This document shows, one piece after another, positions 7,755-13,718 of a stretch of DNA of 13,718 nt (its first letter is position 1; the number at the start of each line of letters is the position of its first letter). Origin of the DNA: Promethearchaeia archaeon. GTDB taxonomy: Archaea > Asgardarchaeota > Lokiarchaeia > Sigyniarchaeales > SOKP01. The notes under the pieces are model-generated. The model had not been told where the DNA came from, searched no databases, and saw only the letters and a list, made by a program, of their open reading frames with translations. The stretch lies in assembly GCA_029856105.1 (NCBI GenBank), contig JAHQWH010000228.1, positions 1 to 13,718 of the forward strand. Direction: 5' to 3'. A program made the position numbers and the translations under genes.

Positions 7755-8390
7755 TTGGATTTTGAAAAATTAACAGAATTAATAATTGAGTTAGAAGTAG
7801 ACGATATTGAAGCTGCAGTGAAGGAAGCCCTAGAAGGGGATGGAAAGGACCCATTTGACATCTTAAGCGCTTTAACAAAAGGAATGGACGAAGTAGGAAA
7901 AAGATATGAAGAGAAGGAATATTATTTAACTGAGTTGGTATTAGCGGGGGAGACCATGAAAGAAGCGTTTAAAGTGCTCCAACCAGCCTTAGCAGCATCA
8001 GACAAGTCAGTAGATAAAACAAAAGTTATCATTTGTACAGTTAAGGGCGACAATCATGATATTGGTAAGAATATTTTAGGATCTCTGTTATTAAGCAGCG
8101 GTTTTGAACTGATCGACCTTGGCATGGATGTAGATGCAGATATAATTGTTAATAAAGTAAAGGAATCAGGAGCTACGGTAATTGCGTTAAGCTCGCTCTT
8201 AACAATGACTGTTGAGCAGATTAAAACCGTTCACGAAGCGTTAATCGCAGCGGGTCTTAGGGATAGTGTAAAATTAATCGTTGGTGGAGCTCCTTTGAAC
8301 ATGGAACTTGCTAAGCGGTTGGGTGCAGATGATTTCGCAGATGACGCTGTCGATGGAGTCAGGCATATAAAAAAGTTAGCAGGAAAATAA
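7755..8390 (+). CDS. Corrinoid (cobalamin-binding) protein of the methyltransferase-cognate MtaC/MtbC/MttC type
   Basis: N-terminal cap domain (LTKGMDEVGKRYE...YYLTELVLAGETM) and a B12-binding Rossmann domain with D-x-H-x-x-G (GDNHDIGKN), SSLLT and VGGA; TTG start after AAGGGG. Confidence 0.93.
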   Translation: MDFEKLTELIIELEVDDIEAAVKEALEGDGKDPFDILSALTKGMDEVGKRYEEKEYYLTELVLAGETMKEAFKVLQPALAASDKSVDKTKVIICTVKGDNHDIGKNILGSLLLSSGFELIDLGMDVDADIIVNKVKESGATVIALSSLLTMTVEQIKTVHEALIAAGLRDSVKLIVGGAPLNMELAKRLGADDFADDAVDGVRHIKKLAGK

Positions 8391-8648: not shown

Positions 8649-8903
8649 ATGACTGGTGGAAAAGACAAGGAAATAAAATACGATACGGAATTAGATACGA
8701 GGGGTTTATTTTGCCCAGAACCTCTTTTTGAATTAAGGACTTTTTCAGAATCATTAGATATTGGTCAATGTTTTAAAGTTTTAGCTGATGATCCGGCAGC
8801 AGAAGAAGATTTGACAAGGTGGGCAAAAAGAACTGGTACAGAGTTAGTTGAGTTTTTTAAAGATGGAGATGATCTAATATTTTACTTCAGAAAAAGGGAA
8901 TAA
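8649..8903 (+). CDS. tusA: TusA/SirA-family sulfur carrier protein
   Basis: 84 aa with LDTRGLFCPEP (CPxP) and VLADDPAAEEDL; AGGAGG ribosome-binding site. Confidence 0.92.
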   Translation: MTGGKDKEIKYDTELDTRGLFCPEPLFELRTFSESLDIGQCFKVLADDPAAEEDLTRWAKRTGTELVEFFKDGDDLIFYFRKRE

Positions 8904-8935: not shown

Positions 8936-10126
8936 ATGAGTATATATCTAGACAATCAGGCTGCAAGACCCGTAGACACAAGAGTCGTGGATGAAATGCT
9001 CCTATACTTTAACGAAAAATTTGCAAATCCGGCTTCACTTCATTGCGATGGAGATATTGCTACAGATATTTTAGAGACATCACGAGAAAAAATTGCAAAG
9101 TTTGTGAATGCTCCTAATCCATCTGACATCTTATTTACTTCTGGCGCGACCGAGTCAAATAATTTAGCTTTAATTGGAGCTGCTATGAGACAGAAGAAAA
9201 AAGGGAACCACATAATTATTTCTGAAATCGAACATATATCTATCTTAAACCTTGGGAAATATTTAGAAAGACAGGGGTTTAGAGTAAGCAGAGTTTCTGT
9301 AGATCGGTTTGGTATCATTAAACTAGATAAGCTTGAGAAGCTAATAACAGATGAGACAATTTTAATCTCAATTTCAACGGCTAGTAACGAAGTTGGAAGT
9401 TTACAACCAACAGCTGAAATTAGTAGGATAGCGAGAGAAAAAGGAATATTATTTCATACTGACGCTGTTGCTAGTGAAAGCGTAGTTCCAATTGATGTTC
9501 AAAAAGTTCCGATAGATTTAATCACATTATCGTCGAACGATATTTACGGACCAAGAGGGGTTGGCGCATTATACTTAAAAAAAGGAGTACGAGTTAACCC
9601 TATAATAATTGGTGGCGGTCAAGAAAGAGGTATGAGGTCAGGTTCTGAAAATATAACTGGCATCGTTGGGTTTGCTAAAGCCGCAGAGATTATGAAGGAA
9701 GAAATGCCCAAAGAATCAGAAAATTTAAAAAAATTAAGAGATAAGTTGATTAAGAATATCTTGGAAACAATTCCTAAATCGTATTTAAACGGAGATCCCG
9801 TAAAAAGACTTCCTCACAACGCACATTTTCGGTTTGATTATATCGAAGGGGAATCGTTGATATTAACGCTGAAAGAACACAATATTGCTGCTGCTACGGG
9901 CTCAGCTTGTAGTTCAAAAACATTAGAGGCATCTCATACATTAATTGCAATGGGTCTTTTGCACGAAGAAGCACACGGTAGTCTACTGGTTTCTTTAGGT
10001 AGAACTACTCGCGAATCCGACATTGATAAGCTTATAGAAGTTTTACCAAACCAAGTAAAAAGGTTGAGAAAGTTATCTCCATTAACTCCTCCAGAATTAT
10101 TAAAAAAATATGATGAGGTAAAATAA
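8936..10126 (+). CDS. iscS: IscS/NifS-family (group I cysteine desulfurase-like) protein with the PLP lysine replaced by Asp
   Basis: YLDN, FTSGATESNN, EH, NEVG, FHTDA, GGGQERGMRSG and GSACSS (Cys325) are present; the canonical SxHK-x-YGP reads SSND-I-YGP. AGGAGG ribosome-binding site. Confidence 0.92.
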   Translation: MSIYLDNQAARPVDTRVVDEMLLYFNEKFANPASLHCDGDIATDILETSREKIAKFVNAPNPSDILFTSGATESNNLALIGAAMRQKKKGNHIIISEIEHISILNLGKYLERQGFRVSRVSVDRFGIIKLDKLEKLITDETILISISTASNEVGSLQPTAEISRIAREKGILFHTDAVASESVVPIDVQKVPIDLITLSSNDIYGPRGVGALYLKKGVRVNPIIIGGGQERGMRSGSENITGIVGFAKAAEIMKEEMPKESENLKKLRDKLIKNILETIPKSYLNGDPVKRLPHNAHFRFDYIEGESLILTLKEHNIAAATGSACSSKTLEASHTLIAMGLLHEEAHGSLLVSLGRTTRESDIDKLIEVLPNQVKRLRKLSPLTPPELLKKYDEVK

Positions 10127-10130
10127 TAAA

Positions 10131-10934
10131 ATGAAATCTACTACATATTCAGACAAGGTATTGGACCACTTCAAGAATCCTCGAAACGTTGGTGAAATTG
10201 AAAACGCAGATGGAGTTGGTCGAGTTGGAAACCCAGTTTGTGGAGATCTTATGTGGATCTACCTCAAGATTGCCAAAAATGAAAAGGGTGAAGAAGTAAT
10301 TGAGGATATTAAATTTAAAACGTTCGGCTGTGGTTCAGCTGTTTCTACATCATCAATGATTACTGAGATGGCAAAAGGTATGACACTTGATGAAGCGTAT
10401 AAAATCACGCGACAAAATGTTGCTAACGAATTAGATGGACTTCCTCCTATAAAAATGCATTGCTCTAATCTAGCTGCCGATGCTTTAAAAGCTGCTATCG
10501 ACAACTATCGTTTAGGTACAGAGCCAGAAATAGAGATCGTTACGTCTTGTCAATTAGATGTCAGGATAATCCTCGGAATCGATGACTTTCTTGGGAAAGG
10601 AGTTTATAAAGAAGTACCCGCGGATTTAGAAGAGTTTAGAGAAAAAAGAATTATTATAATCGACTCGGGAGACGAATCTTTAGAGCTCGCACTTAAACTA
10701 ACAGAATATACTGGAAGAGTAATTGTTGTAACTTCTGCAAAATCAGTTCCTGGCACTGTTGAATTGAGGAAAAAATTGAAGCATTCAGATGTAAAACTAT
10801 TACAAGAATCAGAATTGATTGAAATCAAAGGAGAGCTCGATGAAGTCGAAAAAATTGTTATACACGATTTCGATGAGGACGAGAATTACGAGCTATTCGT
10901 TGATGTAGTAATAGTTTTAGATTATCGCTTATAA
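10131..10934 (+). CDS. iscU: IscU/NifU-N Fe-S scaffold fused to a thioredoxin-reductase-like Rossmann domain
   Basis: YSDKVLDHFKNPRNVG, GNPVCGD (C37/D39), FGCGS (C67) and LPPIKMHC (H110/C111) occupy aa 1-128; a further ~140 aa resemble the TrxB NADPH domain. The gene starts 4 nt after the iscS stop. Confidence 0.92.
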   Translation: MKSTTYSDKVLDHFKNPRNVGEIENADGVGRVGNPVCGDLMWIYLKIAKNEKGEEVIEDIKFKTFGCGSAVSTSSMITEMAKGMTLDEAYKITRQNVANELDGLPPIKMHCSNLAADALKAAIDNYRLGTEPEIEIVTSCQLDVRIILGIDDFLGKGVYKEVPADLEEFREKRIIIIDSGDESLELALKLTEYTGRVIVVTSAKSVPGTVELRKKLKHSDVKLLQESELIEIKGELDEVEKIVIHDFDEDENYELFVDVVIVLDYRL

Positions 10935-11098: not shown

Positions 11099-13471
11099 AT
11101 GAAAAAAGTTATAATTGTAGGTGGAGTTGCTGGGGGCGCCTCGACGGCATCTCGACTTAGAAGGTTAATGGAAGATGTGGAGATTACAGTGCTTGAGAAG
11201 GGGGAGTATGTTTCATTTGCTAACTGTGGATTACCGTATTATATTGGTCACATCATAAAGGACCAAACTCAATTGGAACTAATGACGCCAGAAGAATTTT
11301 GGGATCGATTTAGGATTGACGTTAAAGTTAATCACGAAGCAATATCAATCAACAAGAAAAAGAAAACTGTTACGGTCAAAAACCTTGAAAATGATAAAGC
11401 TTTCGAATTGGACTATGATTACTTAGTACTTTCTCCTGGAGCTACCCCAATTGTACCTCCATTTGAGGGGATCGGTGATGTTCCCGTATTTACTCTGAGA
11501 ACAATTCCAGATTCCGTTAAGATCAAACAATTTGTCGAAAAGAATGATGTTAAACACGCAACCATCATCGGGGGCGGTTTTATCGGTTTAGAAATGGCTG
11601 AAAATTTGAAACACAGAGGTGCTAAGGTAAAAATCGTGGAAATGCTTGACCAAGTTATGGCGCCTATAGATAAGGAAATAGCACAATTTGTTCACCAAGA
11701 ATTACTACTAAATGGTGTGTGTTTACAATTAGAAGACCCTGTTGATTCTTTCAAATGTGATAGTGACAATTGTTTTTATGTTATTCCTAAAAGTGGGAAA
11801 AATATTAAGACTGACATGATAATTTTAGCAATTGGGGTCAAACCAGAAAACAAATTAGCTAAGGAATCTGATTTAGAAATTGGTCCGCGAGGTCATATTA
11901 TTGTAGACGAACAAATGAAAACCTCAGATCCTTCAATATTTGCTGTAGGTGACGTAGTCCAAGTAAAAAATTTTATAACCCAAGAACCCACTGGAATACC
12001 TTTAGCGGGTCCGGCAAATAAACAAGGGAGAATAGTTGCTGATGTCATTGCTGGCCGTGATACGAAGTATCAAGGAATTTTGGGAGCCTCCGTCGTAAAA
12101 GTGTTTGATTTAACTGTTTCAACAGTAGGCTTAACTGAAAAGCAATTAAAAAAAACCGATATTAAGTACGAAAAGATTTACATACACCCTAATAACCACG
12201 CAGGTTATTACCCTGGAGCTGTGCCAATAACTCTTAAATTGTTATTTGAAATTCCAAGTGGAAAAATACTCGGAGTTCAAGCAGCTGGAGGTCCAGGAAC
12301 AGAAAAAAGGATTGATGTAATTGCTACTGTAATTAAATTCAAAGGAACGGTGTTTGACTTAGAAGAGTTGGAACTTACTTACGCACCGCCTTTTGGTTCT
12401 GCTAAAGATCCTGTAAATATGGCGGGATTTGTTGCGGCTAACGTAATTAAAGGTGATATGCCAATTTGGCATTGGCACGACATTGAAAAAATAAAAAATA
12501 ATAATAGTTTTATACTTGATGTGAGAACACCCGAAGAATATCAAATCGGAACTATTGAAGGAGCTGTGAACATAAGCGACTTAGAATTAAGAAGTAGGCT
12601 GGATGAAGTTCCTAAAGATAAAAACATTTACATTCTCTGCGAAGTGGGGTTTAGAGGCTACCTTTCAACAAGATTATTAATTCAAAAAGGATATCACGTT
12701 AAGAATTTATCAGGTGGATACAAATTATTTAAAACAGCAGCAGCAACAACCGAAGAAATAGCCGCTGAGTGTGGAGCATCAGAAGAAATTATGGAAGAAC
12801 TAGTTGAAAGAAAAACTACAATTACGGAAGATTATATAGAAGTAGATGCGTGCGGTTTATCCTGTCCAGGGCCTTTAACTGCGCTCATTAAATCTCTTGA
12901 AGCACTACCGGAAAACAAAAAATTAAAAATTTATGCTACCGATCCAGGGTTTAAAGCGAGTGTAGAAGCTTACGCAAAATTGAATGATGCCGTTACTTTG
13001 TTATATTTAGGTAAAGAAGAAGGAAAATTGGTTGCGATGTTAGAAAAGGGACCTATAACCATCGAAGATGTTTCAGCACCGGTAAAAATTGCGAAGAAAA
13101 CGAGGAAACAATTGAGAAGTCCAGATGCACCTGCTCTATCTGAGATGAGGGCAGACGAGTTATTCGAAGCACTTGATACAGATGAATCGCCAGCACTAAT
13201 GATTGACGTTCGGACACCTCATGAATATCATAGTGGACATATTAAAGACACTAAATTAATGCCGTTAGGGGAATTGATGCATAATATTGATGCTTTAAAC
13301 AAATATAAGGATGAGGAAATTGTTGTAGTTTGCCATAGTGGGGCACGCTCGATGATGGCAGCCCAATTAATGGTCAGAGAGGGATTTAAAGATGTTAGAA
13401 ACTTAACAGGTGGCATGATTATATGGTACCGGAATGGTTACCCTGTGTTGCCACCTAAAAAAGAATATTAG
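11099..13471 (+). CDS. CoA-disulfide/persulfide reductase (CoADR/Npsr-like) fused to rhodanese, TusA and a second rhodanese domain
   Basis: FAD motif IVGGVAGG, SFANCGLPYY (C43), NAD(H) motif IGGGFIGLE...VE, IFAVGD, YYPGA and YAPPF; then DVRTPEEY...LCEVGFRG (C514), VDACGLSCPGP (C585/C589) and DVRTPHEY...VCHSGARS (C745). Confidence 0.93.
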   Translation: MKKVIIVGGVAGGASTASRLRRLMEDVEITVLEKGEYVSFANCGLPYYIGHIIKDQTQLELMTPEEFWDRFRIDVKVNHEAISINKKKKTVTVKNLENDKAFELDYDYLVLSPGATPIVPPFEGIGDVPVFTLRTIPDSVKIKQFVEKNDVKHATIIGGGFIGLEMAENLKHRGAKVKIVEMLDQVMAPIDKEIAQFVHQELLLNGVCLQLEDPVDSFKCDSDNCFYVIPKSGKNIKTDMIILAIGVKPENKLAKESDLEIGPRGHIIVDEQMKTSDPSIFAVGDVVQVKNFITQEPTGIPLAGPANKQGRIVADVIAGRDTKYQGILGASVVKVFDLTVSTVGLTEKQLKKTDIKYEKIYIHPNNHAGYYPGAVPITLKLLFEIPSGKILGVQAAGGPGTEKRIDVIATVIKFKGTVFDLEELELTYAPPFGSAKDPVNMAGFVAANVIKGDMPIWHWHDIEKIKNNNSFILDVRTPEEYQIGTIEGAVNISDLELRSRLDEVPKDKNIYILCEVGFRGYLSTRLLIQKGYHVKNLSGGYKLFKTAAATTEEIAAECGASEEIMEELVERKTTITEDYIEVDACGLSCPGPLTALIKSLEALPENKKLKIYATDPGFKASVEAYAKLNDAVTLLYLGKEEGKLVAMLEKGPITIEDVSAPVKIAKKTRKQLRSPDAPALSEMRADELFEALDTDESPALMIDVRTPHEYHSGHIKDTKLMPLGELMHNIDALNKYKDEEIVVVCHSGARSMMAAQLMVREGFKDVRNLTGGMIIWYRNGYPVLPPKKEY

Positions 13472-13593: not shown

Positions 13594-13718
13594 ATGAAAA
13601 AAACAGTTAAAAACTTATTCGCCGCATTCTTGGGAGAATCTCAAGCGCGAAATCGATATACTTTGTTTTCAAAAATTGCTAAAAAAGAAGGTTATGTTCT
13701 AATTTCAAAGATTTTTGA
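13594..13718 (+). CDS. rbr: Rubrerythrin, 5' partial (runs off the window)
   Basis: Not in the ORF track. Manual translation gives MKKTVKNLFAAFLGESQARNRYTLFSKIAKKEGYVLISKIF, matching the rubrerythrin N-terminus NL-x-x-AF-x-GES-x-A-x-x-RY...A-x-x-EG; AGGTGAG upstream. Confidence 0.88.
   Translation, partial: MKKTVKNLFAAFLGESQARNRYTLFSKIAKKEGYVLISKIF

Follow-up and report, generated by a model that had tools for sequence, protein, structure and literature searches.

We have identified, in a genome of the Lokiarchaeia (Asgard archaea), a gene that joins a complete IscU scaffold for the assembly of iron–sulfur (Fe-S) clusters to what is probably the relic of a flavoprotein. It lies in a 13,718-nt stretch of contig JAHQWH010000228.1 (assembly GCA_029856105.1), which was analysed as a whole and is called the window below. 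The gene (10131..10934, + strand) starts with an ATG at 10131, 4 nt past the iscS stop, ends with a stop codon at 10932-10934 and forms an open reading frame of 267 aa. IscU linked to a flavoprotein, or to its relic, is a new domain architecture on the IscU scaffold of the Archaeoglobus fulgidus type. The tail of the Lokiarchaeial and Thorarchaeotal proteins is probably what remains of an IscU–flavoprotein fusion that is still whole in Jordarchaeia, and we hold the identity and descent of this domain with high confidence.

Judged by its profile matches and conserved residues, the N-terminal half (aa 1-128; 10131..10514, + strand) is a complete IscU scaffold, as the first-pass annotation of this DNA had read it. 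Pfam NifU_N (PF01592) covers aa 5-127 (E 2.3e-46; 157.5 bits, cut-off 22), and the cut-off of the NCBIfam model TIGR03419 is likewise exceeded (194.4 bits, cut-off 187.9). None of the cluster ligands C37, D39, C67, H110 and C111 is missing, nor is the LPPIK motif, and all of them are unchanged among 24 aligned sequences; Y6, D39 and K108 are invariant in the alignment as well. An AlphaFold2 model of the 267-aa protein, built on 24 homologues, has a mean predicted local distance difference test score (pLDDT) of 86.8, and its N-terminal half matches IscU structures in Foldseek, among them that of A. fulgidus (4eb5_C), to which it is 68% identical.

The tail (aa 147-267; 10569..10931, + strand) is a Rossmann domain of the NAD(P)H (reduced nicotinamide adenine dinucleotide (phosphate)) binding type, and the earlier assignment to the TrxB/AhpF middle domain was borne out by profiles, phmmer and fold alike. 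Profile TIGR01292 (thioredoxin-disulfide reductase) matches aa 149-261 at E 5.6e-12 over profile positions 119-231 of 300, and the tail scanned alone gives E 1e-12; the 45.1 bits of the window protein fall far below the full-length cut-off of 343.45. The AhpF profile matches the domain at 8e-5, and Pfam Pyr_redox covers aa 173-245 with 22.6 bits, just over its cut-off of 22. A phmmer search of PDB sequences returned NADPH domains of thioredoxin reductases (TrxRs) and of TrxR-type ferredoxin-NADP reductases, with a best E value of 4.9e-7. In the AlphaFold2 model the tail is laid out as a beta-alpha-beta unit and a beta-meander with a pLDDT of about 90, and Foldseek superimposes it, as had been expected of such a check, on the TrxR NADPH domains 3f8d, 4zn0, 2q7v, 2zbw and 1fl2 with a root-mean-square deviation of 1.6-2.2 A (about 118 residues aligned, E about 1e-10). 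The limits of the domain fall on the two hinge strands. By profile and predicted fold together, the resemblance is one of homology rather than chance. A look-up in the ESM Atlas found generic Pyr_redox fragment clusters and nothing else.

The motifs by which such a domain works are missing, and the alignment confirmed each of the absences that had been proposed. The segment GKGVYKEVPAD (10593..10625, + strand) keeps the GxGV motif and has KEVPA at the site of the TrxR CxxC; it resembles the GVY(Y/P)(Y/S)V of relatives without a CxxC. DSGDES (aa 178-183; 10662..10679, + strand) stands where TrxRs have the dinucleotide-binding GxGxxA loop, as GGGD(A/S)A, and the TSA (aa 201-203) of TSAKS (10731..10745, + strand) aligns with the HRR motif for the 2'-phosphate. 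The same loss of loop and basic motif is seen across all aligned short forms, as we call the fusions with the relic domain alone. The first loop position varies in the family (D, E, H, Y, F or N), HRR has become T-x-x, and of the nucleotide loop the middle glycine (G180) alone survives, in at least 90% of members. Canonical NAD(P)H binding by the relic is unlikely, to judge from these motifs, because the loop keeps this middle glycine alone and no basic motif follows strand 2. The 267-aa protein has no flavin adenine dinucleotide (FAD) domain. R173 and R196 of the tail are invariant in the alignment, as are E249, Y253 and D258 of an acidic beta-hairpin, HDFDEDENYELFVD (10863..10904, + strand). 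The acidity that had been remarked on is real and general: the net charge of the NADPH-type domain is -13 in the window protein and averages -10.9 in short forms and -8.6 in long forms, compared with -3.5 in free-standing CxxC-less relatives and -2.3 in canonical TrxRs with a CxxC.

The complete counterpart of this protein is found in Jordarchaeia. The closed genome of ‘Ca. (Candidatus) Freyarchaeum deiterrae’ (G117, family f21) contains a 448-aa frame with a TTG start (L016:1501-2844), in which a complete TrxR-like flavoprotein with the motifs GGGPAG, GNGDQA and GIYAAGD comes after IscU (aa 1-128); TIGR01292 aligns with it along the entire profile (positions 1-300 of 300). Eleven further long-form clusters of 447-453 aa come from independent sources, one of them named Jordarchaeaceae. 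One NCBI record (P0224) comprises the 326-aa flavoprotein part only, from an internal Met; other sources call the full 448 aa. None of the long forms has a CxxC, the site reading GV(Y/C)YYV. The Jordarchaeial long form is probably an active flavoprotein, as its sequence suggests, because it retains both FAD-domain segments and the GxGxxA loop as GNG(D/E)QA. Its next relatives (41-48% identity; P0238-P0248) are free-standing flavoproteins of 308-327 aa from Thorarchaeota, Hodarchaeales and ‘Ca. Pyrohabitans’, which lack the CxxC and have GGGD(S/T)A, HR(R/K) and a conserved terminal PYW motif.

An unrooted tree confined to the NADPH-type domain (117 columns; support as ultrafast bootstrap / Shimodaira–Hasegawa-like approximate likelihood ratio test) recovers a short-form clade (100/99) and a Jordarchaeial fused clade (100/98) and unites the two (89/93). 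Both sets of domains fall with CxxC-less proteins, separate from the CxxC TrxRs (100/99), and a quick run on 137 rows agrees with the careful one. The signatures VEKV and, in the hairpin, D-x-D-E-D-E are common to short and Jordarchaeial long forms. The FAD domain of the TrxR family consists of two separate segments on either side of the NADPH domain, and since the host domain is thus split into two flanking segments, the simplest history is a single IscU–flavoprotein fusion followed by loss of the FAD segments. The FAD domain and the nucleotide motifs would accordingly have disappeared after the fusion. The CxxC, by comparison, was most likely absent already from the donor and not lost later, because the tail groups with CxxC-less flavoproteins apart from the CxxC TrxRs. 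Of the first-pass description of a catalytically dead thioredoxin reductase, the loss of motifs thus stands; the origin from a TrxR does not, the donor being, on the tree, likely a CxxC-less flavoprotein. On this history, the fusion is a plain example of how a domain inserted in an enzyme can persist alone after deletion of its host domain.

Two possible partners were considered and rejected. For an enzyme split in two, with its FAD-only partner encoded apart, no counterpart turned up in the window genome, where a search with the Jordarchaeial flavoprotein returned only a canonical CATC TrxR (30%) and generic flavoproteins. The free-standing CxxC-less flavoprotein as a fixed partner occurs in some Thorarchaeota genomes but 1.3 Mb from the fusion, and no close homologue of it is present in the Lokiarchaeial genomes checked.

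To establish the distribution of the fusion, the tail domain was searched for in 400 genomes from the phylum, and strong matches, those with E of 1e-15 or below, were counted by hand from the table. The short form is strongly matched in 133 of the 160 genomes of the window's class (~83%) and in 73/86 genomes of family f31 (~85%), which includes a Thorarchaeota metagenome-assembled genome (MAG); all six genomes of family f21 have the long form. Many of the genomes without a strong match are incomplete. Short-form open frames span 257-317 aa. The remaining families give weak hits only, which are ordinary TrxRs, with one exception, a copy on a short contig (G074:C463:2079-2471) of a family otherwise without the fusion. 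This copy looks mis-binned, and a locus filed under an actinobacterial MAG (L079, contig DATKTW010000107.1) is likewise out of place; the two, at 79% identity, are probably mis-binned Lokiarchaeial contigs. In a scan of 185,579 species genomes, the best 80 loci are Asgard-named except for ‘uncultured archaeon’ labels and the one actinobacterial-MAG contig. Near-identical proteins are carried by records named Promethearchaeota archaeon Loki_b31 and Lokiarchaeota archaeon, and existing database names are ‘NifU-like’, ‘Fe-S cluster assembly scaffold protein NifU’ and ‘NAD(P)/FAD-dependent oxidoreductase’. The representative search was headed by P0122 (2038 aa), but this insect titin owes its place to a low-complexity acidic match and was discarded as no relative. 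A literature search, with most subscription journals outside its coverage, found no description of the short or the long fusion.

The tail domain is kept under purifying selection and is functional, as far as substitution rates and conservation tell. Across 16 pairs of close relatives with unsaturated synonymous divergence (dS), the tail domain has a median ratio of non-synonymous to synonymous rates (omega) of 0.096, compared with 0.046 in IscU; an earlier comparison of distant pairs had saturated dS and only 7 usable pairs. Mean column identity of the tail is 59%, with 11 invariant residues across the two classes and the long form.

The cysteine outside IscU deserves separate consideration. 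The two domains of the window protein are joined by an acidic linker (aa 129-146; 10515..10568, + strand) with disorder predicted for aa 133-144 (pLDDT below 50 in AlphaFold2). It carries Cys140 (codon 10548-10550), which the first-pass annotation had rightly singled out and which is the sole cysteine of the protein besides the ligands C37, C67 and C111. Exactly one cysteine outside IscU is found in 164/165 fused proteins. Its place shifts: relative to GxGV it is 9-10 residues ahead in Thorarchaeota, 12 in most long forms (PLACGIPGE) and 15-19 in Lokiarchaeia, C140 of the window included. Three genomes of family f3 have no linker cysteine and carry one just past the last strand, in the C-terminal tail. 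These closed genomes (4.3-6.0 Mb; L013:1501-2325, L014:1501-2340 and L015:1501-2310) have it in the contexts ECSDD, QCADD and PVCENV, and if any of them is that of a cultured strain, the protein with the cysteine in its tail would be open to experiment. In the known TrxR architecture the N- and C-terminal ends of the inserted NADPH domain lie side by side, and because these two ends adjoin, all the cysteine positions would lie close together in space. No cysteine stands at the corresponding site in the free-standing CxxC-less relatives. Since the number and neighbourhood of the cysteine are kept as its exact position shifts, the pattern in the alignment is the hallmark of a thiol that is flexible and has a function.

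Two genes precede the fusion on the same strand and complete a conserved trio, namely tusA (8649..8903; Pfam, synteny), which encodes a sulfur carrier with an intact DxRGxxCPxP motif, the CPxP cysteine included, and iscS (8936..10126; motif, PDB match). The order TusA–IscS–fused IscU is kept at every sufficiently long locus in both classes. The window IscS reads SSNDIYGPR at 9530-9556, with Asn-Asp in place of the His-Lys of the pyridoxal phosphate motif (SSND, aa 199-202, nt 9530-9541), and retains the loop cysteine (GSAC325). SSND replaces His-Lys in every IscS that stands beside a fused IscU, short or long, and the two IscS genes found directly beside a plain IscU have the HK motif; replacement and fused IscU coincide at each of the 32 loci examined. 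The best PDB match of the window IscS is A. fulgidus IscS2 (E 2e-129), with the same SSND. In PMC7585200, which refers to Marinoni 2012, Pagnier 2014 and Yamanaka 2013, A. fulgidus IscS2 is described as without desulfurase activity and as giving a Cys ligand to the IscU cluster, and by this precedent the window IscS would likewise lack desulfurase activity and supply a Cys ligand. Elsewhere in the same genome are a canonical second IscS (AHK motif, 50% identical; G000:C159:2095-3258), a plain IscU that is 66% identical to the fused IscU domain (G000:C3:3292-3666) and a third NifU_N-type protein (G000:C94:11115-11471). Because these are present as well, the tailed IscU belongs to a specialised paralogous system and is not, on this gene content, the cell's sole Fe-S machinery.

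Local gene order continues with a gene for a CoADR-rhodanese-TusA-rhodanese fusion (790 aa; 11099..13471, + strand; Pfam/NCBIfam profiles, synteny). It stands next to the trio at some loci of family f1 only and is absent from f3, f4, f5, f7 and f31 loci; the CoADR fusion is accessory and outside the core.

Our overall best explanation, to which we give an even chance of being right, is that the relic is an acidic docking module with a mobile cysteine on the scaffold of an Asgard system of the A. fulgidus type. The relic probably has a working role in a paralogous, Asgard-specific system of Fe-S assembly that is independent of cysteine and would consist of TusA, a lysine-less IscS and IscU. An IscS without the lysine would be unable to take sulfur from cysteine, so that sulfur would arrive as sulfide or as the persulfide of a carrier (TusA). 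Electrons from ferredoxin in the bacterial and mitochondrial ISC systems turn persulfide sulfur to sulfide and fuse [2Fe-2S] clusters (see also PMC13066941, section 2.1). The ancestral IscU–flavoprotein fusion would have provided the scaffold with a built-in electron supply, as ferredoxin does in bacterial ISC, for sulfane sulfur reduction and [2Fe-2S] cluster coupling, and the whole flavoprotein on the Jordarchaeial IscU is most readily understood as such a supply. In Lokiarchaeia and Thorarchaeia this supply would have been given up with the loss of both FAD-domain segments and the nucleotide-binding motifs, leaving a relic that now would have no FAD and, most likely, no NAD(P)H binding. It may serve as an acidic docking body within the TusA/IscS/IscU complex that positions the flexible cysteine, and the cysteine could then become the fourth ligand of the cluster once IscU departs from IscS, or relay persulfide between TusA or IscS and the assembly site. 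Docking and a swinging cysteine as the present role of the relic is a tentative proposal, and we think it somewhat more apt to be wrong than right. A more far-reaching form, in which an Asgard cysteine-independent machine, its scaffold at one time equipped with an NAD(P)H-driven flavin reductase that Jordarchaeia retain, uses the cysteine of the relic arm to take sulfane sulfur from TusA/IscS or to cap a nascent cluster, is conceivable and rather unlikely; if true, it would be a scaffold design beyond those described for ISC, NIF, SUF, MIS and SMS.

Several points weigh against this account and the descent behind it. That short and long forms are sisters is moderately supported (89/93) on 117 columns of an unrooted tree, and the order from long to short is therefore parsimony, not proof; selection of the comparison sequences for their resemblance to the Jordarchaeial protein may have biased the tree. 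One cluster representative (P0123) has no extra cysteine. By an estimate from helix and linker lengths, Cys140 would reach the cluster site of its own IscU only with the linker almost fully extended. The middle glycine of the nucleotide loop is kept in at least 90% of members, so some ligand binding is possible. AlphaFold2 shows no fixed packing of the two domains (predicted template modelling score 0.50), which fits a tethered module and proves nothing.

The kept glycine leads to one of the rival explanations, that the relic still binds a (di)nucleotide in a non-canonical manner and gates the scaffold as a redox or energy sensor. Its intact Rossmann fold, G180, the invariant R173 and R196 and strong purifying selection would all suit such a role, which is nevertheless improbable, as the first glycine of GxGxxA is not conserved, HRR is replaced by T-x-x and a net charge of about -11 is unfavourable to a phosphate-rich ligand. 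No better placed is the view that the relic is an oligomerisation module which pairs two IscU for the reductive fusion of [2Fe-2S] into [4Fe-4S] clusters. The residues of the Methanothrix IscU dimer given in section 2.1 of PMC13066941 are an N-terminal Tyr, an Asp of the Asp39 type and the Lys before His-Cys, and they are invariant here as Y6, D39 and K108; an excised inserted domain, moreover, exposes its former interface with the FAD domain. Such a pairing would, however, leave both the single conserved cysteine and the acidity unexplained; we put it as low as the sensor.

Other readings fare worse. The first-pass annotation had suggested that the module recruits the neighbouring flavoprotein or IscS, and the two genes do adjoin in the window and in close relatives. 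Recruitment of the CoADR-rhodanese-TusA-rhodanese protein is nonetheless very unlikely to be the role of the relic: the gene is a neighbour in part of the window's family only, the loci of f3, f4, f5, f7 and f31 keep the fused IscU without it, and it cannot be the general role because the neighbours that persist in two classes are TusA and the lysine-less IscS. A functionless remnant nearing loss would agree with the disappearance of every catalytic and cofactor motif of the TrxR family, but the omega of about 0.10, an identity of about 50% between members of two classes, the 11 invariant residues and a length that is stable in hundreds of genomes make it still less credible. Misassembly, a concern of the annotation from the start, was ruled out together with gene-calling error: the relatives searched for the same architecture have it, with the same frame in over 200 genomes, some of them closed and single-contig, and in more than 100 protein clusters from independent sources. 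We found nothing in support of an artefact and consider its likelihood negligible. The acidic docking module with its mobile cysteine remains the reading that we prefer.

Compared with known systems, the trio is closest to IscS2-IscU of A. fulgidus (PDB 4eb5, 4eb7), with an IscU of 68% identity and an IscS with the same SSND. The A. fulgidus IscU chain, in contrast, has about 138 residues and no extra domain, whereas in the protein described here IscU runs on into a tail of 140 aa that contains a Rossmann domain and one additional cysteine, and TusA is a fixed neighbour. The NADPH domain of low-Mr TrxRs and TrxR-type ferredoxin-NADP reductases (3f8d, 4zn0, 2q7v, 2zbw) is alike in fold and homologous in sequence, but the window tail is without FAD domain, CxxC, GxGxxA and HRR, is far more acidic and sits on an Fe-S scaffold. 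The Jordarchaeial long form (L016:1501-2844, P0225-P0237) shares the IscU type, the SSND IscS, VEKV, DxDEDE and the single hinge cysteine, and differs in retaining both FAD-domain segments and the GxGxxA loop. NifU (NifU_N, Fer2_BFD and Nfu) is also an IscU-type scaffold with added domains, one of them redox-active, but these are unrelated to the window tail. The 267-aa protein has no Pfam match to Fer2_BFD or Nfu, and TIGR02000 (NifU) stays at 148.7 bits below its cut-off of 273.3, with positions 4-122 of 290 matched; the architecture is thus unlike that of NifU, as had been claimed. Among the best sequence matches (E 1.9e-6) is PDB 5j60, another TrxR-family protein whose NADPH-type domain lacks the Gly-rich loop. 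We take it to be an NADPH-independent TrxR-like protein of cyanobacteria, from a family that makes no use of NADPH. The cyanobacterial proteins differ from the window tail in having kept the FAD domain and CxxC. SufBC2D carries bound FADH2, held non-covalently by SufB. As an Fe-S scaffold with its own flavin it offers an analogy for the Jordarchaeial long form, though the proteins are unrelated and SufBC2D has no fused reductase.

To our knowledge, no electron donor is known for the minimal archaeal IscS/IscU systems, and no sulfur route for those of the lysine-less type. The fused flavoprotein of Jordarchaeia and the relic with its mobile cysteine in Lokiarchaeia and Thorarchaeota provide testable handles on both. 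Among prokaryotes, the Asgard lineage is the one most closely related to eukaryotes. An Asgard signal in eukaryotic ISCU and NFS1 is reported by a 2026 study (PMC12872458), which gives variants of the Asgard IscS/IscU system a wider interest.

Two further genes of the window were noted. Upstream of tusA, at 7755-8390, lies a gene for a corrinoid (B12-binding) methyltransferase-partner protein, which occurs likewise in two other loci of the family (L037, L039). A partial gene at 13594-13716 runs off the end of the window, and its first 41 residues look by eye like the N-terminus of rubrerythrin.

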